Shown in pieces: positions 312 through 41,714 of a stretch of DNA of 47,202 bases (the stretch's first letter is position 1; each line of letters begins with the position of its first letter). The notes below the pieces were generated by a model. That model was not told the origin of the DNA, searched no databases, and saw only the letters and a program-made list of their open reading frames with translations. Position numbers and translations under genes: made by a program. This DNA comes from a virus. Taxonomy: Duplodnaviria; Heunggongvirae; Uroviricota; Caudoviricetes. Where the stretch lies: IMG/VR virus record IMGVR_UViG_2861038214_000003, positions 1 through 47,202 of that record; one strand, given 5' to 3'.

Positions 312-3300
312 TCAATGTTCGCTTCCTGTTAACTGCCCGACAAGTGCAACCAGTTCGCTTACCTGATTTTCCAGAGTGCTGATCCGGGTGCCTGCTGTTG
401 CCATATTTTTACGTAGCGTTATGTTTTCCTCTTCCAGCGCGGTAACGCGACCATCTGTTTCACGGGCGACCTGAACAAGTAACCCCGTCACGGCGGAGTA
501 GTCAACATTAAGATAGCGAGTTTCTTCGCGTAGCTCGTTGCCGTCAACGGTCGGACCTTGCAACTCTTCACCATAATGAGTAAACGATCCCACAGCTTCA
601 GGTATCGCCTCCATTACTTCCTGTGCAATAACGCCAGCATAAGGCATTCCGTTTTCCTTGAGCGTGTAGGTGTACCCGTTCATTTTACGGATTGCTTTCG
701 TCGCGTCGCTGATAACGCGAATATCGTCTTTAAGGTCGCGGTCTGATGACTGATTCAGCGTTGTGCAATTAATAGCGCCATTTACATCAAACAACTGGCC
801 TGCTGATGTTTTTTGCGCATAAAACAGATACGCAGCAGACGTTCCAACCTCAAAAACGTTTTGTCGATCACTTGATCCCCATACTTTTGCGGCAAATGAT
901 AGTTCTGTATTACCTAAGTTCTGTAAAACAAAACGATTGCCAGTCCCTGATTGCTTTGTAAGGGTTAAATCAACAGTTGAGTTAACCTCATCCTTGTTGA
1001 TAGTGAGCGCCTGCGCTTTAGCCCCGTTAACAGCACCTGTTTTGAGTTGAACCGCGCCGTCATTACCATTTAGCAGTATCTCAGCTCCGCTAAAGAAATT
1101 TTTTAGCGACAGCATCTTACTTACGCCGACTGATGAACCCAACGCCCACGCGAGAGAATTACCGGTGCTATCAAACCCACGTACAAAGCAATCCATTTTG
1201 CTATAGTCTGACGTGCTTCCAAGGACATCAATCCGCCCTCCGCCAGATTTTAACGGGTTAGATGTGGTTAATGACCTGACAGCAAGATCGGTGGATGAAT
1301 TTAGATCGTCTACTGTTAGTAATTTCTTCCATTCCTGCATCGTTCCGTTTTCAACTGTTCTTCCCCAAAAACCGGAATTGCGGCCTCCGAACTGCACAGC
1401 ATAATTTTTACTAAATTGAACATGAATGCCGCCAAGAACCATAGAACCTGCCGGGCCGTTTGTACTGCCTGCGATTGGTCTAAATTTGTCGACGTTATCA
1501 GTATGCTGAGAGTTCCAGTCATGACCTGTTAATGTTGCGATTCCTGAGTTAGCTGTAATTAACCCAGACGCTTTAAGATTTTGCACATCAATTCTGTCGT
1601 TTGCGAAATTATATGCAATTGCGTTACTAACGCTTCCGGCATCATCATAATCGCGTTTCTGAATAAACCAGTCGCCAGCATTAGCAATGAGAGTATAAGT
1701 AGGCGTGTTAGCCGGGCGATCTGTTTCATTAAATCTTATTGCTGGGTTAGCGCTCCTTATTTGTAAAGGTTTTTCAACCGTTGATTTCAGTATCGCACTA
1801 TCTACAATTAAATTACCTTCTGAGTTAAGGTTTAGATATTTTGAAGCACCAGTTGAACCATCGTATGTAAACCTTATTGTTAATTGACCTGGCTCATTTG
1901 ATAAAGTCTCAACATACATATCAGCACCAAGACGCACAGTGCTGTCAGTTGCTAACAGTCTTGTATGGAGAATACCACTAGATGTGTATGTATTGGTCGA
2001 ATCACTATATCTATCAAGAAATAGACTGTTAAGTTGAGGGCTATTACTCCTGCCTAATCCAAGATTCGTTCTGGCACCATCAATAGTTGCCGCACCAGTA
2101 CCACCATGAGAAACATCAAGCGGTATCCATTTTTTTTGTGTGTCGCTGTAACACCCCCATGTTGATCCGGTTAAACCCAGGCGCATGGATTTATCATGGT
2201 TATATAACCATGTTTCGCTATTCCATTGGTCAAGACGGTCCACTTCATTTTTGCGAGCGTGGCGTGTCCATTGCGGGCCTGTTGTCGGATTCCAGCGATA
2301 AGTATAAAGCGAGCGCGTAGCCCATCCCTGAAATACACCTGTATACGCTGGTGTTCCATCTACCTGACTAATAAACCCCGTAAGACTGCTTTCACCGGAT
2401 GCAATCGATGGAAAGCCTTTTGCATTACTCATAATGCGCATAAATCCGATATACCCTGATGGGTTGCCGGAAATATCAGGACAATCACGCGGGGCTGAGC
2501 CAAGACCGATATTATCGCCAACAATTACTTGCGCCTGGTTGCGATAATTAAGTGCGTCCGCCGCAGATTTCGCCGCGTTTGTTTCACTGGATTTAGCATT
2601 AGTTTCGCTGGCTTTAGCGTTTGTTTCGCTGCTCTTTGCTGCTGCCTCGCTATTTTTCGCGTTGGTTTCTGATTTTTTGGCTGCTGTCGCGGAGTTTGCC
2701 GATGCAGTTTGTGAGGCCGCTGCCGCCTGTGCGCTGTTATCCGCATTCGTCTCAGACGTTTTTGCGGCCTTCGCGGAATTTCCTGCCGCCGTTGCCGAGG
2801 AAGCTGCACTACTGGCACTTGATGATGCGTTCGTTTCTGATGATTTCGCTGCCTCTTTTGAGGCCGCCGCATCCCGGGCTGAGGTGGCAGCTTCTGACGC
2901 TTTCGTGGTCGCGGTGGATGCAGAAGTGGCGGCTGATTGTTGTGACGCTGCCGCATTCGTTTCTGACGTTTTCGCCGCACCGGCACTGGTGGCCGCCGCG
3001 CTTTTTGAGGACTCTGCAGCGGCAGCACTTTTTGATGCTTCAGTAGCCTTTGTTGATGCCGTTCCTGCGCTGGAAGACGCTGACTGAGCCGACGACGCGG
3101 CCTGTCCGGCTGACGTGCTGGCTGCGCGTGCTGAGTCTGCAGCATCAGTCGCATGGGTTGCCGCCTCACGGGCTGATGTGCCGGCATCGCCGGCTGACTT
3201 CTTCGCGGCTGCCGTGTTCTGTGCCACCGCGGACGCGTTACGCGCCACCTCTTCCACCATCAGCTCAAAACGGCGCAGTGCCTCCGGACGGACATCATCC

Positions 3301-3584
3301 TCCGTCATGGCACCAAGAAAATCATTCAGCGTACCGGGTTGAGAATCTTCATACACGGTGATGGTCCCGGCATGTGACGGCGGGAACCCTTCCACCAACA
3401 GAATAACGCTGTACTGACCGTACTCAACGTCCATGCTGTAACGCCCGGCTTCATCCGGATTTTCAGATGCCAGCGTGTTCACCACCACCGTGGTGCTGTT
3501 ACGTTTTGCTTTCAGCTGGATTGTGCAGTTCTGTACCGGTTTTCCTGTGCCGTCTTTCAGTACACCTGAAATCTTTACTGCCAT
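312..3584 (-). CDS. stf: Side tail fibre protein (Stf-like) with Ala/Ser/Thr-rich repeat region and a C-terminal intramolecular chaperone (peptidase S74-like) domain
   Basis: 1090-aa ORF, GGGGGG RBS before the ATG at 3584. The C-terminus (..GVIAQEVMEAIPEAV..LNVDYSAVTGLLVQVARE..ALEEENITLRKN..) matches my recollection of the autoproteolytic chaperone domain of endosialidase-type fibres. Position downstream of J and lom. Confidence 0.85.
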   Translation of the reverse strand: MAVKISGVLKDGTGKPVQNCTIQLKAKRNSTTVVVNTLASENPDEAGRYSMDVEYGQYSVILLVEGFPPSHAGTITVYEDSQPGTLNDFLGAMTEDDVRPEALRRFELMVEEVARNASAVAQNTAAAKKSAGDAGTSAREAATHATDAADSARAASTSAGQAASSAQSASSSAGTASTKATEASKSAAAAESSKSAAATSAGAAKTSETNAAASQQSAATSASTATTKASEAATSARDAAASKEAAKSSETNASSSASSAASSATAAGNSAKAAKTSETNADNSAQAAAASQTASANSATAAKKSETNAKNSEAAAKSSETNAKASETNAKSSETNAAKSAADALNYRNQAQVIVGDNIGLGSAPRDCPDISGNPSGYIGFMRIMSNAKGFPSIASGESSLTGFISQVDGTPAYTGVFQGWATRSLYTYRWNPTTGPQWTRHARKNEVDRLDQWNSETWLYNHDKSMRLGLTGSTWGCYSDTQKKWIPLDVSHGGTGAATIDGARTNLGLGRSNSPQLNSLFLDRYSDSTNTYTSSGILHTRLLATDSTVRLGADMYVETLSNEPGQLTIRFTYDGSTGASKYLNLNSEGNLIVDSAILKSTVEKPLQIRSANPAIRFNETDRPANTPTYTLIANAGDWFIQKRDYDDAGSVSNAIAYNFANDRIDVQNLKASGLITANSGIATLTGHDWNSQHTDNVDKFRPIAGSTNGPAGSMVLGGIHVQFSKNYAVQFGGRNSGFWGRTVENGTMQEWKKLLTVDDLNSSTDLAVRSLTTSNPLKSGGGRIDVLGSTSDYSKMDCFVRGFDSTGNSLAWALGSSVGVSKMLSLKNFFSGAEILLNGNDGAVQLKTGAVNGAKAQALTINKDEVNSTVDLTLTKQSGTGNRFVLQNLGNTELSFAAKVWGSSDRQNVFEVGTSAAYLFYAQKTSAGQLFDVNGAINCTTLNQSSDRDLKDDIRVISDATKAIRKMNGYTYTLKENGMPYAGVIAQEVMEAIPEAVGSFTHYGEELQGPTVDGNELREETRYLNVDYSAVTGLLVQVARETDGRVTALEEENITLRKNMATAGTRISTLENQVSELVALVGQLTGSEH
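2520..3190 (-). repeat. Degenerate in-frame tandem repeats (about 21 nt) encoding repeated (K/A)SSETNA-like heptads within stf
   Basis: Repeated units such as tttagcattagtttcgctgg / tttagcgtttgtttcgctgc on the plus strand; the protein shows KSETNAKNSEAAAKSSETNAKASETNAKSSETNAAKS. Confidence 0.7.
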
Positions 3585-3595
3585 ATTCCCCCCAC

Positions 3596-3622
3596 AAAAA
3601 AGCCCACCTGAACCGGCGGGCT
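3596..3622 (-). terminator. Candidate intrinsic terminator between lom and stf
   Basis: GC-rich hairpin (agccc...gggct) followed by a T-run on the minus strand. Confidence 0.4.
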
Positions 3623-3648
3623 GTCATAACACTGTGTTACCTGGCTAA

Positions 3649-4248
3649 TCAGAATTTATAACCGACACCCACGATGAAACCGTCAGTGCGCCAGTCACCA
3701 CTGCCAGAACCTTCATAAGCAATATCAATGGCCACGGATTCGGTCGGGTTAAACTGCACGCCAGCCCCCCACGCCAGAGACGTGTTGCTGTGGCGACCGT
3801 CATCACTTCCGGTCAGCACATCGTGCTTTTTCCCCTTGTTGTCAGTTACGCGGATATAATCTCCGGAGAAAGTCGAAACACGGCTGTAAGCCATACCCGC
3901 CATCGCATACGCGCTGAACCATTCATTCACGCGCACAGACGGCCCCGCCATCACGCTGAACCAGCGGTTACGCACTGAATCTTCATGCCAGCGGGTATCG
4001 CTGTAACGGGTCAGCTGGCGATTCTTGTCTCCTGCATAGCTGAATGACGTCACCAGCCCCAGCGTATCCGTAAACTCATAACGGTATTTCACGTTAATCC
4101 CGTTAAGATCATCGCTGCCGGGAACGTTCGTCGAGGCATGAAGATACCCCGCGCTCAGCGTGGACTGATGTTCAGACGCCCATGCAGGCGCACCGGATAC
4201 GACCAGACAGATGGCTGCGGACAAAATGGCTGCACAAACTTTACGCAT
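3649..4248 (-). CDS. lom: Lom/Ail-family outer membrane beta-barrel protein
   Basis: 199-aa ORF with a signal peptide; resembles lambda Lom from memory; ends ..GVGYKF. Sits in the canonical J-lom-stf position. Confidence 0.9.
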   Translation of the reverse strand: MRKVCAAILSAAICLVVSGAPAWASEHQSTLSAGYLHASTNVPGSDDLNGINVKYRYEFTDTLGLVTSFSYAGDKNRQLTRYSDTRWHEDSVRNRWFSVMAGPSVRVNEWFSAYAMAGMAYSRVSTFSGDYIRVTDNKGKKHDVLTGSDDGRHSNTSLAWGAGVQFNPTESVAIDIAYEGSGSGDWRTDGFIVGVGYKF

Positions 4249-4270
4249 AATTACCTCTCGCTTTTCTGCA

Positions 4271-4297
4271 ATAAAAAAGGCGTCATTTCTGACGCCC
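4271..4297 (-). terminator. Intrinsic terminator after J
   Basis: Minus strand reads gggcgtcagaaatgacgcc followed by ttttttatt: 7-bp stem, 4-nt loop, U-tract. Confidence 0.6.
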
Positions 4298-4314
4298 GTT
4301 CTGGGTTATAAAAT

Positions 4315-7716
<3,402 letters not shown>

Positions 7717-35688: not shown

Positions 35689-36501
35689 TCACTTTTCCGA
35701 CACAATACGACTGGAGGAATCGAAAATCTGTCGAACAATATCCCGGTGCTTGTTCAGCTCCCGCAGCGCGGCGCAGACTCGCTCCCACTTCTGGACATGA
35801 TTTTTCGCCCGACGCAGTTCACGGTTTGCCATATGCAGCGATGGTAAAATCAGGTTATCCGCTTGCGTTTCAGTAAACGATGGCAACGACTGCACAATGT
35901 CCGCCACAGTTTCTGTTTTAATATCTTCCTGTGTTGCAGCTTCCTGTACTGGTAACGCAACACCGGCTAGCTGAGGAAAGGCTTTACCATCTGTTTCCGC
36001 TACCGATGCAGCTTTCGGCTCTGCTGGTAAATTACCGCCCGGCATGCAGTAACGAAATTTACCGTTCTGATTAACGCGAATCAGACGAGCTTTGCTGATT
36101 GCCATTGCCAGCGTTGAAGCCACTTTGCGGGATGTGGTACCGAACAACGTAGCCAGTTCATCCGCAGTTAGTGGACCACGTTGTTCAATCGTCGCAGTTA
36201 AATCGCTCTCTGAAATTTTCGCGACTGTTGCCGTGGTAGTTTCTTCCGGCAGTTCTGCCGGCGCTGGCTGTTCCTGCTGAACGTTGTTATCAGCCACACG
36301 CCAGGTGTACGCGCTTTTATCAACGAAACCAGCCTTTTTCAGTTCCCATAGTTCGTTCAGCACTTCTTCACGGCTGATATCAAGTCGCGCAGCAAGTTCT
36401 ATGGATGTGGCTTTTCCCATTGCTTTCAGTGCGTCAAAAACAGTCTCCATTAAATTTTTCTCCCGGTAAAAATTACTTCGCAATTCCTGGCTGGACGACA
36501 T
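35689..36501 (-). CDS. Hypothetical protein with two winged-helix-like segments
   Basis: 270-aa ORF; may start at the internal Met near 36450. Confidence 0.5.
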
Positions 36502-37219
36502 TCGGACGCCAGCTCTCCCAGTTAAAATTCACCCATCGCCCGCCGTTCATGGTCATGCGATCCATAATCCTCTCGCCGAGCAATGTTTTCATGGCCTCAT
36601 AATTCAGGTTTGTCAGCATCCCCACGCTGCGCATCGACGCTGTCCGGCGATCAACAATCTGGTGCAGCACCACCTGCTCGTTTTTTGTCTCGCGCTGAAT
36701 GCCAATTTCATCAAGAACCAGCAGATCCACTTGGCACAGTTCCCGCAAAAATTTTTCGCCTGATTGCCCGTCGTCATAGCTGGCGTGTAGGGCACTCATG
36801 ACATCAGCCACGGTAACCACAATCACTGTCTGGCCATCTTTCAGCAGGCGATTCCCGATAGCCGCCGCCAGATGGTTTTTTCCGGTACCAGGTTTTCCGC
36901 TGAACGCAAAATTTGTACACCCGGTCATCAGTTCATCAGCGATGGATTTCGCCTGACTCAACGCGTATCGCTGCCCTTCGTTCTGCACCTGGTAATTCGA
37001 AAACGAGCATTTGCGGTGCAATGGCTGGATGCCAGAGCGATTAAGAATTTTTTCCACCCGCAACTGACGATTCTGACGGTTGATCTCCTCACAACGTTTC
37101 TGGCCTTCGGAAAGTTGCCACTCGCGCCACTCCGCTACCGTCTTGAATGGCGCGGTTACATGTGACGGGGCCAGTCTGCGGATACGTTCAAGAACATCGC
37201 CTGTCGCAATATTTTTCAT
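36473..37219 (-). CDS. ydaV: DnaC/IstB-like AAA+ helicase loader (YdaV-like)
   Basis: Walker [16 protein letters not shown], Walker [11 protein letters not shown]. Confidence 0.85.
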
Positions 37220-37225
37220 GGTCAG

Positions 37226-38083
37226 TTACCCCCTGAAGCCTGGCGGGATCGCACTATCCGGTAACGAGACGGTGTTAACCTGTCGGAGTAACGTCTCAGG
37301 TCGAACACCTTTCGGCGCGAACAAGCCCTGGTATTCATTGGCGATGCTGTGTCGAATCACCTGCTCAGGTGAAAAACCCTGCTGGCGGAATTTTTCCAGC
37401 TCCCGTATCGCCCCGTTAGCGCCCTGCTCCGTTCGAATCGGTTTTCGCAATGCCTGGCGAAATTCAACCCACTCACGCCAAAGCGAGACAGAAATCCAGT
37501 TCGGCAAAGCAATATCCAGAGGGTCAAACTTTTTGACACCTCGATTCCCCCGGGGGGGATTTAGGGGGGGATCTGTTTTTAGATCTTTATCTGTATCTTT
37601 ATTAGTTGCCTTTGTGTTGACATCATGTTCAAACACCACTTCAACATCTGTTTGAACACCTGTTAAATTTCTCTCTTGTTTTGTTTGAACATCTGCTTCC
37701 TTTCTGCTTCTTCTGGCCTGAACAGATGCTTTTCCTGCGGCTGATTTTTTGGTTAATTTTTCCCTGACTGATGCCAGATCTTCCTCAATCCGAAGATGCA
37801 CCCATTCCTCGCCGTTATCGCAAAAAAACTCCTGCAAGGATGGTTCAACATCAGCCCATCGCTCGTTAGTCAGACGGGCAATTTTTGCCAGCCTGTTTTT
37901 AGGTATTGGCTTTCCTGTTTGCCAGTAATTGAACATCAGCAACAAATACGCACCATGCTCCTCTGCTGACAAATGCATGGTGTCAGCCAGGTAATCAGCT
38001 ATGTACAGTTGCATGTATGGTAATGCGGCCATAATTGCCCCGTATGATGCTGCCCGGTGGCTTAGAATAAGCACAAACAGCAT
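37226..38083 (-). CDS. ydaU: Replication initiation protein (YdaU-like, lambda O-analogous position)
   Basis: 285 aa, the same length as K-12 YdaU as I recall it; low-complexity linker encoded over the repeat-rich DNA segment. Confidence 0.75.
   Translation of the reverse strand: MLFVLILSHRAASYGAIMAALPYMQLYIADYLADTMHLSAEEHGAYLLLMFNYWQTGKPIPKNRLAKIARLTNERWADVEPSLQEFFCDNGEEWVHLRIEEDLASVREKLTKKSAAGKASVQARRSRKEADVQTKQERNLTGVQTDVEVVFEHDVNTKATNKDTDKDLKTDPPLNPPRGNRGVKKFDPLDIALPNWISVSLWREWVEFRQALRKPIRTEQGANGAIRELEKFRQQGFSPEQVIRHSIANEYQGLFAPKGVRPETLLRQVNTVSLPDSAIPPGFRG
37523..37694. promoter_or_regulatory. Candidate origin of replication inside the ydaU-like ORF
   Basis: Palindrome GTCAAActtttTTTGAC, C5G7 and G7 tracts, two GATC sites, AT-rich TATCTG/TATCTT repeats and three iteron-like TGTTCAAACACC / TGTTTGAACACC / TGTTTGAACATC copies. 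Confidence 0.4.
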
Positions 38084-38095
38084 GGAAACTTTTGC

Positions 38096-38518
38096 TTAAT
38101 GAACAATGACAGAATCGTCGGAAGAACCGCCGCCGCTGAAATGCGCTTTCCGGTAAACGGCTTGGACTGCATCATCATGCGCATCAATTGCCGTACTTAA
38201 CGCTTCCTGCGCCGCCAGTAATGCACGGCGTTCCAGGGTATCGAAGATGCAGAGTCGGTGACGCAGCTCGCGCGGAAGGATTGCCAGAATTGCTGGGATC
38301 AGCTTCTGAATTTTTTCTCTTTGCGTTTTCGTTTCACCTTTCAACCAACGGTGATAGATATTCTTCTGATTGTTCCAGTCCTTGCCTGGAACCAGGGGCA
38401 ATTCGCCGCCCCCCTGGCGCAGATATTCTTCAGTAATTGCATTGGCTACCCATGCCTGCCCTTTTTCGGCTGCTAGGGCAAACAACACTGATTCGATGTG
38501 CTCATGCTTGATTTTCAT
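38096..38518 (-). CDS. ydaT: YdaT-like early protein
   Basis: 140 aa, the same length as K-12 YdaT as I recall it; follows the cro-like gene. Confidence 0.7.
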   Translation of the reverse strand: MKIKHEHIESVLFALAAEKGQAWVANAITEEYLRQGGGELPLVPGKDWNNQKNIYHRWLKGETKTQREKIQKLIPAILAILPRELRHRLCIFDTLERRALLAAQEALSTAIDAHDDAVQAVYRKAHFSGGGSSDDSVIVH

Positions 38519-38540
38519 GAATCATTTGCCTCTTGATGTT

Positions 38541-38837
38541 TCAGGTATGATCAAATGAGGATTTGTTACTGTCATTTAGTTGCTTCACTGACATATTCTG
38601 CGAACAACATGCCGAACGTCGTAAATATGACCAGTCAATATCAGGACGAAGTTCTTCGCACAGAACCTCACCTCTTGTTGCACGTTCAATTGCTGGACAT
38701 CTCTCGGCAGGCAATTGACGTACCCCTTTGATCCATTGATTTACGCTTGGAGGTGATACACCTAAAAGCCTAGCCATTGCTGATTGCCCACCGACAACAG
38801 CACAAGCTTGCTTGAATGAATAGTTCTCTTTTTTCAT
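38541..38837 (-). CDS. ydaS: Cro-like HTH regulator (YdaS-like)
   Basis: 98 aa, HTH ..FKQACAVVGGQSAMARLLGVSPPSVNQW..; divergent from the repressor gene. Confidence 0.8.
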   Translation of the reverse strand: MKKENYSFKQACAVVGGQSAMARLLGVSPPSVNQWIKGVRQLPAERCPAIERATRGEVLCEELRPDIDWSYLRRSACCSQNMSVKQLNDSNKSSFDHT

Positions 38838-38863
38838 CGAATGAACTCCAAAAACACACAGAA

Positions 38864-38893
38864 ATATTAGGCGACGCCTAACGCAATTGTCAA
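38864..38893 (-). promoter_or_regulatory. pR-like sigma70 promoter (TTGACA, 18-nt spacer, TAATAT) with operator palindrome TTAGGCGACGCCTAA (38867-38881) in the spacer/-10
   Basis: Read on the minus strand about 25 nt upstream of the GGAG RBS of the cro-like gene. Confidence 0.55.
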
Positions 38894-38960
38894 TAGGCTG
38901 TGCCTAATGCGGTAAGGGTAGGGATTGCCTAATGTAATGCGCATAGGAGAATATTAAGCA

Positions 38961-39437
38961 ATGCTTAGTGGTAAAGACTTAGGCCGAGCGATAGAGCAGG
39001 CCATTAACAAAAAAATCGCATCGGGATCCGTCAAATCAAAGGCGGAGGTCGCACGCCACTTCAAAGTCCAACCACCATCAATTTATGACTGGATTAAGAA
39101 AGGCTCTATAAGTAAAGATAAACTTCCAGAATTATGGCGTTTCTTTTCTGATGTTGTTGGTCCAGAGCATTGGGGGCTTAACGAATACCCCATACCAACC
39201 CCCACCAATTCAGATACAAAAAGTGAACTTTTAGATATAAACAACCTTTATCAAGCAGCCTCTGATGAAATAAGAGCGATTGTAGCTTTCCTGTTATCTG
39301 GAAATGCTACAGAACCAGATTGGGTTGACCACGATGTTCGCGCCTATATAGCAGCGATGGAAATGAAAGTGGGTAAGTATCTGAAAGCTCTAGAATCTGA
39401 ACGGAAAAGCCAGAACATCACAAAAACTGGAACTTAA
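38961..39437 (+). CDS. racR: Prophage repressor (RacR-like)
   Basis: 158 aa with HTH and AGGAGA RBS; lies between the divergent promoters. Confidence 0.8.
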   Translation: MLSGKDLGRAIEQAINKKIASGSVKSKAEVARHFKVQPPSIYDWIKKGSISKDKLPELWRFFSDVVGPEHWGLNEYPIPTPTNSDTKSELLDINNLYQAASDEIRAIVAFLLSGNATEPDWVDHDVRAYIAAMEMKVGKYLKALESERKSQNITKTGT

Positions 39438-39547
39438 ACTTATATGGTCTGACGGAAAACTCCTGGATTCCGTTATTTAACCCCCCCATCACTTTCTGCT
39501 GTCGCCATCACCTATTAGGTTACGCTCAAAACATTAGGCATAGCCTA

Positions 39548-39576
39548 TTGACAATCAATTAGGCATTACCTATAGT
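39548..39576 (+). promoter_or_regulatory. pL-like sigma70 promoter (TTGACA, 17-nt spacer, TATAGT) flanked by ATTAGGCAT operator-like motifs
   Basis: Near-consensus hexamers read directly; points into the ydaG/ydaF-kilR-recET operon. Confidence 0.55.
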
Positions 39577-39745
39577 TCCAGCATACCACCCACCCCGCCC
39601 CACAGAACGCCGGGCAATACTTCGAGTTACCAGGCAGTGGTAAGGGGTTAAGTAGCCAGCCCGAGGCGTATGAACATGACGGCGGGATTCAAATTTTGCA
39701 GTGCAGCAGTTAGTTCCGCCACCCGGCGTTAAGGGGAGAGATAAG

Positions 39746-39880
39746 ATGGTGCATTACGAAGTAGTTCAGTATTTGATGGATTGTTGCGGTATCACTTACA
39801 ACCAGGCTGTGCAGGCTTTACGCAGCAACGACTGGGATCTCTGGCAGGCAGAAGTCGCTATACGTAGCAACAAGATGTGA
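39746..39880 (+). CDS. Small early protein (YdaG-like, 44 aa)
   Basis: AAGGGGAGAG RBS; MVHYEVVQYLMDCCGITYNQAVQALRSNDWDLWQAEVAIRSNKM*. Confidence 0.6.
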   Translation: MVHYEVVQYLMDCCGITYNQAVQALRSNDWDLWQAEVAIRSNKM

Positions 39881-39890
39881 GATTCGCAAA

Positions 39891-40046
39891 ATGCAAAAAA
39901 TCGACCTCGGCAACAACGAATCCCTGGTGTGCGGCGTGTTCCCCAACCAGGATGGAACGTTCACTGCCATGACGTATACCAAAAGCAAAACATTTAAAAC
40001 CGAAACTGGTGCGCGCCGATGGTTGGAGAAGCACACAGTAAGCTAA
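39891..40046 (+). CDS. Small early protein (YdaF-like, 51 aa)
   Basis: MQKIDLGNNESLVCGVFPNQDGTFTAMTYTKSKTFKTETGARRWLEKHTVS*. Confidence 0.6.
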   Translation: MQKIDLGNNESLVCGVFPNQDGTFTAMTYTKSKTFKTETGARRWLEKHTVS

Positions 40047-40531
40047 CGATTAAAACGTCTACTCCTGCTGTTCCAGAATAACTTCATAAAATGGGAGTAT
40101 TTTTCGGTGACGAGATAATAAGAACAGTTTGCGCTATCACTCTGATGTTGAATGATGCCCTTCCGTTCTAATTTTTTCATAACCGGGTTACGGCAAGGAG
40201 AAGTGATAATAAGATTTCCTGTTTTAAGGAAATCTTTAAATACAGCGATTTCTTTCTCAGATAAACGAAGCAATACTCGTTGCTCTGGTAGTAATGAATA
40301 ATGCTTTTGAATATGTGCTCGCAATCTTGAGAAGGAAATGGCGACCACGAAAGAAAAGGCAAAAACGATAATCTGAAAGAGCCAAGGTATTTCAGTATAA
40401 GCATTGAATGCGGCAGTAAACTCTTTCGGTATCAGCCAGAGAGTGAGACCAAAAATGATAATCGTATACATAAGTCTTTCGAGTGGCTCGTTAGCAAAAA
40501 GTTTCAACAATGGAGTAAATACATCCAACAT
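40043..40531 (-). CDS. sieB: Superinfection exclusion protein B
   Basis: From MLDVFTPLLKLFANEPLERLMYTIIIFGLTLWL.. (162 aa) it matches K-12 SieB as I recall it; the ORF track extends 41 codons further upstream. Confidence 0.85.
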   Translation of the reverse strand: MLDVFTPLLKLFANEPLERLMYTIIIFGLTLWLIPKEFTAAFNAYTEIPWLFQIIVFAFSFVVAISFSRLRAHIQKHYSLLPEQRVLLRLSEKEIAVFKDFLKTGNLIITSPCRNPVMKKLERKGIIQHQSDSANCSYYLVTEKYSHFMKLFWNSRSRRFNR

Positions 40532-40972
40532 ATCAATAACTCTCAACTGTAAGGGTATTGAAATGTTAACACAAGCTCTCGCTGTAGGGGTATAGCCGAG
40601 ACCACCGAAGCCCGGAGGTGGTGAAATAAAACCGGGCACAACACGAAGGCGCATTTCCGATATCCATAAAGAGTCGGTCTTGTCTGTTAAATTTAAATGG
40701 TGGGAGTGCGCCTCCGGTTGTAAATAACGACATTGCTGTGTGTAGTCCTGGCGGCATCAGTTTTTTTCTTGAAGTTCGGCTGATGTCCGCCCTTTTTAAA
40801 GTGAATTTTGTGATGCGGTGAATGCGGCTAAGCGCACGTGGCACAGTTAAAAGTCATGTTAGTCCTTATTGGTTTGGGTGGGAAAGCCGACTGTAATTGT
40901 TAACTGGTTGCAGTCACCTGGAGGCACCAGGCACCGCATCAACAAAGTTCATTTGTAAAAATGGAGATAATT

Positions 40973-41194
40973 ATGATTGCACATCACTTCGGAACTGATG
41001 AAATACCACGTCAGTGTGTGACTCCTGGCGATTATGTTCTTCATGAAGGCCGGACATATATTGCCTCGGCAAACAATATTAAAAAGCGAAAACTATATAT
41101 TCGTAACCTGACCACAAAAACATGCATTACTGACCGCATGATTAAAGTCTTCCTCGGTCGTGATGGTTTACCTGTAAAGGCGGAGTCATGGTGA
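40973..41194 (+). CDS. kilR: KilR, FtsZ-targeting cell division inhibitor
   Basis: GGAGA RBS; [40 protein letters not shown].. (73 aa) matches K-12 KilR as I recall it. Confidence 0.85.
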
Positions 41195-41364
41195 TGACTA
41201 AGAAAATAAAATGTGCTTACCACCTTTGCAAAAAAGACGTTGAAGAAAGCAAAGCTATTGAAAGAATGCTTCACTTCATGCACGGGATTTTATCAAAAGA
41301 CGAACCGAGAAAATATTGCAGTGAAGCTTGTGCCGAAAAAGACCAGATGGCACATGAACTTTAA
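41194..41364 (+). CDS. ydaE: YdaE-like Cys-rich small metal-binding protein (56 aa)
   Basis: TGATG overlap with the kilR stop; [56 protein letters not shown]. Confidence 0.7.
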   Translation: MTKKIKCAYHLCKKDVEESKAIERMLHFMHGILSKDEPRKYCSEACAEKDQMAHEL

Positions 41365-41438
41365 TTAATTGACTATTCGAAACTGAATTTATGCCAGAAA
41401 TGGCAGGTATTCGCTCAACCTTAATTAAGGAGAAAAAC

Positions 41439-41714
41439 ATGATTACCAATTATGAAGCCACTGTTGTAACTACCGATGACATTGTTCACGAGGTGAATCT
41501 GGAAGGAAAGCGCATTGGCTACGTAATTAAAACAGAAAATAAAGAAACCCCATTCACTGTGGTTGATATCGATGGTCCATCAGGCAACGTAAAAACACTT
41601 GATGAAGGTGTCAAAAAAATGTGCCTGGTGCATATCGGAAAGAATCTGCCCGCAGAAAAAAAAGCCGAATTTCTGGCAACTCTAATTGCAATGAAATTAA
41701 AAGGTAAAATCTGA
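41439..41714 (+). CDS. racC: RacC
   Basis: AGGAG RBS; MITNYEATVVTTDDIVHEVNLEGKRIGYVIK.. (91 aa). Confidence 0.8.
   Translation: MITNYEATVVTTDDIVHEVNLEGKRIGYVIKTENKETPFTVVDIDGPSGNVKTLDEGVKKMCLVHIGKNLPAEKKAEFLATLIAMKLKGKI

Follow-up and report, generated by a model that had tools for sequence, protein, structure and literature searches.

Phage lambda has its repressor gene flanked by two operator clusters, each overlapping an outward-facing promoter; its adjacent sites stand approximately 24–26 bp apart, its repressor is made from a leaderless transcript and can form octamers, and the repressor gene is codirectional with the left promoter, features shared by the locus analysed here. We analysed a 47,202-nucleotide stretch of viral DNA (IMG/VR record IMGVR_UViG_2861038214_000003, positions 1 to 47,202; hereafter the window), which is the Escherichia coli prophage Rac, at the locus surrounding its repressor gene racR, the Rac immunity (lysogeny-control) region. 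Very probably, RacR governs an immunity region formed by two mirror-image promoter–operator cassettes, one on each side of its gene. Left and right refer here to positions in the window, such that the left cassette is pR-like and the right cassette pL-like. The design is an ordinary lambdoid one and is largely known; the right cassette is supported as a predictable, conserved analogue of pL/OL.

The same locus has been studied in strain K-12 through the racR–ydaS operators (Krishnamurthi et al. 2017, PMC5700373; Mruk laboratory, NAR 2022, PMC9638921, and NAR 2023, PMC11014345), in work confined to the 123-bp intergenic region and the beginning of racR. Primer extension gave a single ydaS start, with a −35 TTGACA and a −10 TAATAT whose replacement abolishes activity, and three racR starts, the strongest of which is leaderless with a −10 GAGAAT (PMC9638921). 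At the lowest protein concentration the DNase I footprint of RacR lay on the ydaS promoter, and at higher ones it took in the racR promoters; an ATTAGGC motif and (T/A)TAGGC-n3-GCCTA(T/A) repeats were described, named O1–O3, with one lying over the racR ATG (PMC9638921). Electrophoretic mobility shift assays revealed three RacR complexes on the 123-bp region and one on a 49-bp single-repeat fragment, and chromatin immunoprecipitation with quantitative PCR showed RacR enrichment at the racR–ydaS region (PMC5700373); a later paper reports four inverted repeats and size-exclusion data supporting a RacR octamer (PMC11014345). The left half of the switch is experimentally established and already known, and the repressor control of this early promoter proposed in a preliminary description of the present DNA is borne out by the K-12 start mapping, footprint, mobility shifts and immunoprecipitation. 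In the Rac literature searched (Conter 1996 and Cardinale 2008 lay outside the search), we found no description of a second operator cluster or promoter after racR.

Prophage CP-933P of E. coli O157:H7 (PaaR2, YdaS and YdaT; PR933P, PRM933P and PL933P; Jurenas et al. 2021, PMC8630535) shares gene order and logic with Rac, including a non-LexA-type, octamer-forming repressor divergent from ydaS–ydaT. Its left promoter, equivalent to the right-hand promoter here, has been cloned and is repressed approximately 100-fold, whereas the Rac counterpart is predicted from sequence; CP-933P differs further in its repressor family, in its operator consensus (GTTTAGTAA) and in carrying a toxin–antitoxin pair between repressor and left promoter (PMC8630535). 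The Qin dicA–dicC system (Bejar, Cam and Bouche; summarised in bioRxiv 10.1101/2023.04.14.536235) has a short repressor without a RecA cleavage site, three operators on each side and a pL analogue, dicBp, driving ydfA–ydfB–ydfC–dicF–dicB. Qin differs from Rac in its repressor and operators, and its induction is described as proceeding via an antirepressor. Rac departs from lambda in having a repressor without an S24 peptidase or LexA-type domain, sites of 15 bp rather than 17 bp and clusters approximately 0.65 kb apart rather than approximately 2.4 kb; neither an N gene nor a nut site was recognised downstream of its pL-like promoter, where no dedicated nut search was made, and, in a further difference from lambda, YdaS is reported not to repress racR (PMC9638921).

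Over 1.7 kb around racR, the window matches E. coli FORC 064 at 100% identity and K-12-type genomes at 99.8%, the corresponding genes of which carry the RefSeq names ydaT, ydaS, racR, ydaF and sieB. The four base differences from a K-12-like strain fall at 38911, in a spacer between operators, and at three synonymous positions in racR, leaving the RacR protein and every operator and promoter sequence unchanged, so that the published K-12 experiments are directly applicable. The preliminary description had named the product a racR-like repressor; a repressor it is, but the protein is identical to K-12 RacR and not merely like it. racR (+ strand) is divergent from ydaS (− strand) and is followed codirectionally by ydaG, ydaF, kilR, ydaE, racC and recE. 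The two control regions flanking it comprise the following features (operators and repeat arms are given without strand).

38541–38837, − strand: ydaS, Cro-like regulator, first gene of the pR-like operon ydaS–ydaT–ydaU–ydaV (open reading frame, RefSeq annotation, Pfam)
38864–38893, − strand: PydaS, the pR-like promoter (promoter scan; start mapping and −10 mutagenesis in K-12, PMC9638921)
38867–38881: operator O1, TTAGGCGACGCCTAA, a perfect palindrome with 0 mismatches (published footprint and O1 assignment)
38885–38909 (extended, 38886–38920): inverted-repeat arm A, equal to O2 plus the −35 hexamer
38893–38907: operator O2, ATAGGCTGTGCCTAA, 1 mismatch, core of arm A
38918–38932: operator O3 (our naming), GTAGGGATTGCCTAA, 2 mismatches, kept in E. 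coli variants
38954–38968: weak operator TTAAGCAATGCTTAG, 3 mismatches, over the racR ATG and leaderless start; the published 'O3'
38961–39437, + strand: racR, prophage repressor, 158 amino acids (open reading frame; protein equal to K-12-like RacR)
39515–39529: candidate operator OL3, TTAGGTTACGCTCAA, weak, 3 mismatches, its left half-site alone well kept
39532–39556 (extended, 39521–39555): inverted-repeat arm B, with OL2 as its core
39534–39548: operator OL2, TTAGGCATAGCCTAT, 1 mismatch, core of arm B
39548–39576, + strand: predicted pL-like promoter, 11/12, with −35 TTGACA at 39548–39553 and −10 TATAGT at 39571–39576
39559–39573: operator OL1, TTAGGCATTACCTAT, 2 mismatches, conserved

The 25-bp inverted repeat reported earlier at 38885–38909 and 39532–39556 can be read directly: AATTGTCAATAGGCTGTGCCTAATG, the first arm, and GATTGTCAATAGGCTATGCCTAATG, the reverse complement of the second, agree at 23 of 25 positions, and a repeat finder lengthens the arms to 35 nt at 83%. 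An exhaustive scan shows this to be the sole inverted 25-mer pair in the whole window with at least 23 matches and no more than 1.5 kb between arms (found in two registers), against a random expectation of approximately 0.003 per window. The repeat is the upstream operator plus the −35 hexamer of a promoter cassette. The promoter scan likewise upholds the outward TTGACA noted in each arm, with a good −10 at 18-nt spacing on the − strand (TTGACA 38893..38888, TAATAT 38869..38864; 10/12) and at 17-nt spacing on the + strand, the latter being the single 11/12 sigma-70 match in the 47 kb. The TTAGGC motifs said to overlap both promoters prove, by motif scan, to be 15-bp TTAGGC-N3-GCCTAA sites at each, in agreement with the published repeat. 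Allowing up to 2 mismatches, TTAGGCNNNGCCTAA has 7 matches in the window where 1.65 are expected (0 of 100 shuffles reach 7), and five of these lie inside the two control regions, starting at 38867, 38893, 38918, 39534 and 39559; the weaker sites at 38954–38968 and 39515–39529 each have 3 mismatches. Exact TTAGGC/GCCTAA hexamers are concentrated similarly, 7 of the 11 in the window falling within 212 bp (binomial P ~1e-14).

Both promoters are built alike, the last T of the upstream operator opening the −35 and the last three bases of the downstream operator opening the −10. Read along transcription, the left cassette (− strand) is TTAGGCACAGCCTAT-TGACAATTGCG-TTAGGCGTCGCCTAA-TAT and the right cassette (+ strand) is TTAGGCATAGCCTAT-TGACAATCAA-TTAGGCATTACCTAT-AGT. 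On the left, O2 abuts the −35 with one base in common, and the last three bases of O1 are the first three of the PydaS −10; O1 is conserved in all RacR-family loci examined, and O2 is conserved in RacR-family loci too. On the right, the last T of OL2 is the first base of the −35, and OL1 occupies the promoter spacer, its last three bases being the first three of the −10. Centres of adjacent sites are 26 bp (O1–O2) and 25 bp (O2–O3) apart in the left cluster, and 25 bp (OL1–OL2) and 19 bp (OL2–OL3) apart in the right; the 25–26-bp interval between neighbouring sites is kept among relatives. Four sites, starting at 38867, 38893, 38918 and 38954, crowd into the racR–ydaS region and overlap the promoter. 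Judging from the published −10, O3 should overlie the −35 of the racR promoter, and 38954–38968 is likely an autorepression site; the site over the racR ATG is a better one (1–2 mismatches) in Mixta, Morganella, Proteus, KpF5, Achromobacter and Pigmentiphaga. The candidate OL3 improves to 2 mismatches in phage vB_EcoS-683R6 and E. ruysiae.

Relatives of RacR, gathered from phage, virus and genome collections, show that the right-hand arrangement recurs. Two sites with a spacing of exactly 25 bp occur 64–1,908 bp after the repressor gene in eight further lineages of the RacR family, namely two diverged prophage variants of E. coli, Mixta, Morganella, Proteus, Klebsiella phage KpF5, Achromobacter and Pigmentiphaga. 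Protein identity to RacR is 92% in the E. coli variants (one having DNA of approximately 87% identity), 62% in Mixta, 57% in Morganella and 60% in Proteus, the other members being KpF5, Achromobacter and Pigmentiphaga (N-terminal domain only, approximately 75%). All eight have the fused form ..GCCTAT/TGACx, 5 nt, TTAGGC..CCTAA/TAT (slashes mark the junction with each hexamer), oriented to fire away from the repressor, with a −35 TTGACx and a −10 TAATAT, TATAGT or TACTAT fused to the sites, and the same cassette stands inverted on the Cro side. Lineages differ in the central N3 and in the spacers but retain half-sites and hexamers, a pattern that would be expected of selection for protein binding. 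Among relatives the two clusters are separated by approximately 0.6 to 2.5 kb, and cargo has been inserted between them. KpF5 has a DUF450 gene (3190–4344) between the RacR-like repressor and the downstream pair, and the cluster therefore keeps its form without keeping its distance. The corresponding slot, from repressor to left cluster, holds rexAB in lambda, and by analogy the DUF450 gene may be a lysogen-expressed accessory or defence gene.

Loci with other repressors point to the same construction. In many E. coli genomes the match to the window begins only at approximately 39582, just past the −10, and homology with other immunity types starts at approximately 39582–39585; similarity resumes at about the predicted +1, and the module boundary sits at the start of the pL-like promoter. 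Two such loci, with unrelated repressors, carry their own palindromes on both sides (GAAC/GTAC-N5-GTAC and GTAAC-N4-GTTAC, respectively). We collected 85 virus contigs containing the downstream leader and grouped the 60 nt upstream of it into approximately 20 sequence types, nearly all of which have a TTGAC/TTTAC-type −35 and most of which have an inverted promoter–operator copy 0.55–1.4 kb upstream. Given that these types and the unrelated immunity types show versions of their own, an inverted promoter–operator repeat around the repressor is the general design of this prophage group.

Published expression data are available for the genes on the right. When racR is silenced by the C protein of the Csp231I restriction–modification system expressed in E. 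coli, the transcriptome shows ydaF, ydaG, ydaE, racC, kilR, ydaC and ralA up 40–70-fold and xisR and intR up approximately 100-fold; RacR depletion transcriptomes show derepression of ydaG, ydaF, kilR, ydaE, racC, recE, recT, ralR, xisR and intR. Zygotic induction of rac recombination genes was reported in 1973, according to Jobling's letter. The earlier proposal that the repressor probably controls both early operons from duplicated operators is supported, its right side by indirect but consistent evidence from conservation, the other immunity types and derepression. The locus has a RacR orthologue with TTAGGC-N3-GCCTAA operators, a repressor divergent from a Cro-like gene with several intergenic operators overlapping promoters and, at the level of sequence, a second cluster beyond the repressor with a promoter directed toward recombination and excision genes.

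Some observations tell against RacR control of a second promoter after racR. Sigma-70 matches of 10/12 occur as often as chance predicts (11 seen, 12 expected in 47 kb), so promoter scores alone are not persuasive, and OL1, the operator nearest the right −10, has both of its mismatches in one half-site. Klebsiella sp. R390 has no downstream pair within 4 kb, its left promoter also looks decayed, and we found no experiment in the literature with RacR bound at 39515–39573 or a start near 39583. Part of the derepression on the right might be indirect, by way of YdaS, YdaT, racR read-through or excision; Rho and NusG also silence kilR, so promoter repression is not the sole control there. The right cluster might act as an auxiliary operator only, tightening ydaS repression through a loop or higher-order complex with little initiation of its own, and with the right-hand genes reached by racR read-through or indirect activation. 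The RacR octamer reported in K-12 suits looping, kilR expression depends on Rho/NusG termination of upstream transcription and the start at 39583 is predicted rather than mapped; set against this, no other sigma-70 match in the window is as good (11/12 with a 17-nt spacer), both hexamers are kept in every lineage despite changing spacers, the equivalent CP-933P promoter was cloned, is active and is repressed approximately 100-fold by its own repressor (PMC8630535), and other immunity types put a TTGAC-type promoter at the same spot before the common leader. We therefore consider a purely auxiliary role unlikely.

The right-hand sites could also be mainly targets of Cro-like YdaS, or of both proteins, derepression then being driven by YdaS/YdaT and not by release of RacR. 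PaaR2 and YdaS both repress the left promoter of CP-933P with footprints in common (PMC8630535), competition between RacR and YdaS for operators is stated in the Rac papers, and YdaT acts as a transcription factor within Rac. Yet the right-hand sites have the same sequence as those footprinted with RacR on the opposite side (PMC9638921), common use of operators by repressor and Cro belongs to lambdoid logic and leaves RacR control intact, and CP-933P YdaS represses, rather than activates, the equivalent left promoter (PMC8630535), which counts against YdaS-driven derepression; there is only a slim chance, in our view, that YdaS is the principal ligand. It is scarcely credible that the 25-bp repeat bounds a small mobile element carrying racR. 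Insertion sequences and miniature inverted-repeat transposable elements do typically have inverted repeats on either side of a gene, but racR alone lies between the arms, with no transposase and no target duplication, each arm is exactly operator plus −35 hexamer, the cluster distance varies from approximately 0.6 to 2.5 kb among relatives, with cargo, and unrelated immunity types share the design with other sequences. We rejected the insertion-sequence reading on the missing transposase and target duplication, the variable spacing and the composition of the arms.

If RacR controls both cassettes, it would bind the 15-bp TTAGGC-N3-GCCTAA pseudo-palindromes, presumably as dimers via an N-terminal helix-turn-helix. 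Each mirror-image cassette spans approximately 46 bp, with operator 2 (..GCCTAT) fused to TGACA, then 5 or 6 nt, then operator 1 (..CCTAA or ..CCTAT) fused to TAT or AGT; because the operators share one base with the −35 and three with the −10, two dimers 25–26 bp apart would cover both hexamers and exclude RNA polymerase. Such a block is published for the left outward promoter, and we infer the same for the right. The left cassette drives ydaS (Cro-like) and ydaT (CII-like) along with ydaU and ydaV, which serve replication; the right cassette, approximately 100 bp past the racR stop and codirectional with it, would drive ydaG, ydaF, kilR, ydaE, racC, recE and recT, followed by ralR, xisR and intR. 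The weaker sites at 38918, 38954 and 39515 would let RacR regulate its own leaderless promoter, and higher-order complexes between the clusters, approximately 0.65 kb apart, are probable, with bridging or looping by octamers a plausible form. On the kilR side, silencing by Rho and NusG comes on top of this. Functionally RacR resembles CI, but it stands outside the CI/LexA-type protein family: Pfam returns a weak HTH_17 match only (residues 28–61) with no Peptidase_S24, and no sequence match to solved structures was obtained. The literature groups RacR with SOS-insensitive Gifsy-type repressors (bioRxiv 10.1101/2023.04.14.536235) and, in view of this and of the lack of an S24 domain, release by RecA-stimulated cleavage is improbable.

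RacR is essential in E. coli K-12, where its loss frees the toxic YdaS/YdaT and KilR, the RecET genes and prophage excision. To this, the present analysis adds a precise map of a second operator–promoter cassette after racR, which is absent from the discussion in recent Rac papers. The right cassette should explain the activation of kilR, recET and int/xis upon RacR depletion and is a potential partner site for the reported octamer; the general lambdoid picture is unchanged.

Downstream of the predicted pL-like start near 39583 lies a conserved leader, followed by the first genes of the operon.

39583–39745, + strand: conserved leader with a C-rich 5′ end, extending up to the ydaG ATG at 39746
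39746–39880, + strand: ydaG, first gene of the pL-like operon (open reading frame with ATG at 39746, RefSeq name)
39891–40046, + strand: ydaF, second gene of the pL-like operon (open reading frame, RefSeq name; DUF1391)

At least 3,800 of 5,426 complete E. coli genomes contain the 164-nt leader, unannotated and 85–100% conserved, in up to 7 copies each. It comes after the approximately 20 promoter–operator types described above and stands before DUF1391 genes in both Rac-like and Qin-like prophages; in an ST131 genome, a Qin-like ydfB–ydfC–dicB operon has the Rac-type leader and a DUF1391 gene after its promoter. Its first 40 nt contain 19 C and 6 G, and this C-rich, G-poor 5′ end resembles a Rho entry site. 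An Rfam search of 38000–41500 (E up to 1) found nothing in the control regions or the leader. The fold of the single sequence has a z score of −1.6, and RNAalifold on 66 leader variants gave a covariation term of −0.74 with one truly covarying pair, the sequences being too similar to decide. The first open reading frames after the promoter encode YdaG (UBA-like) and YdaF (DUF1391) and, with no Rfam match in the leader, neither an N-like gene nor a nut site was recognised, although no dedicated nut or put search was made. We tentatively suggest, as a possibility we would not favour at present, that the leader is a functional cis-acting RNA element common to the left operons of many E. coli prophages without a recognisable N gene; whether by Rho entry, by processive antitermination or as a translational leader, it would set the reach of transcription toward kilR, recET and int/xis, and its 5′ edge would be a fixed exchange junction for immunity modules.

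A paper on the 'trac' terminator (Shashni 2014, PMC4150792) describes a 210-nt G-poor untranslated region 'preceding racR' as a Rho loading site. Such a region fits poorly with the 123-bp racR–ydaS gap and a leaderless racR and appears closer to the C-rich right-hand leader. Within the leader (39663–39732), an invariant GAGG-N9-ATG (ATG at 39676) opens an 18-codon frame, MTAGFKFCSAAVSSATRR (39676–39732); we did not call it a gene, as its start region is invariant in the 66 variants but the frame is broken or shifted in some. A divergent leader copy (contig L167, 8912–9096) keeps the loop CAATACCCCGAGTTA of 39609–39635 on a perfect stem, CACGAAG/CTTCGTG, against GCCGGG/CCAGGC in Rac, and the kept loop on a different stem hints at a real hairpin with a conserved loop.

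The remaining annotated genes of the pR-like operon are taken from the list of open reading frames.

36473–37219, − strand: ydaV
37226–38083, − strand: ydaU
38096–38518, − strand: ydaT

Pfam assigns YdaS to YdaS_toxin (E 2.6e-31) and P22_Cro (E 3.4e-9), and the 44-residue YdaG has a UBA-like domain, UBA_4, above the curated cut-off (24.1 versus 21.8 bits, E 3e-5). On the map of open reading frames, sieB lies on the − strand, and kilR, ydaE, racC and recE lie on the + strand downstream of ydaF. Between the racR stop and the right-hand operators, a hairpin at 39450–39475 is kept, with a longer stem, in the 87–92% variants; as a racR terminator it is unconvincing and at best weak (8-bp stem, −11 kcal/mol, z −1.4, poor U-tract). 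Minus-strand terminator calls at 38882..38866 and 39547..39535 were rejected, being the operator palindromes and on the wrong strand for racR. Position 38911, the sole difference from the K-12-like strain in either control region, is G here and A there, and forms the first base of the published PracR2 −10 (GGTAAG here, AGTAAG in K-12). Sub-threshold Rfam matches to DicF (40737–40792, + strand; 39.1 bits against a gathering score of 48, E 3e-6) and STnc100 (40794–40980, + strand; 35.5 bits against 47) lie between sieB and kilR, on the strand that the right-hand promoter would transcribe. A 5.2-kb contig in a metagenome-assembled genome of Candidatus Nanosynbacter carries a RacR whose sequence is 100% identical to that of E. 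coli, and its presence in that bin is most likely E. coli contamination.

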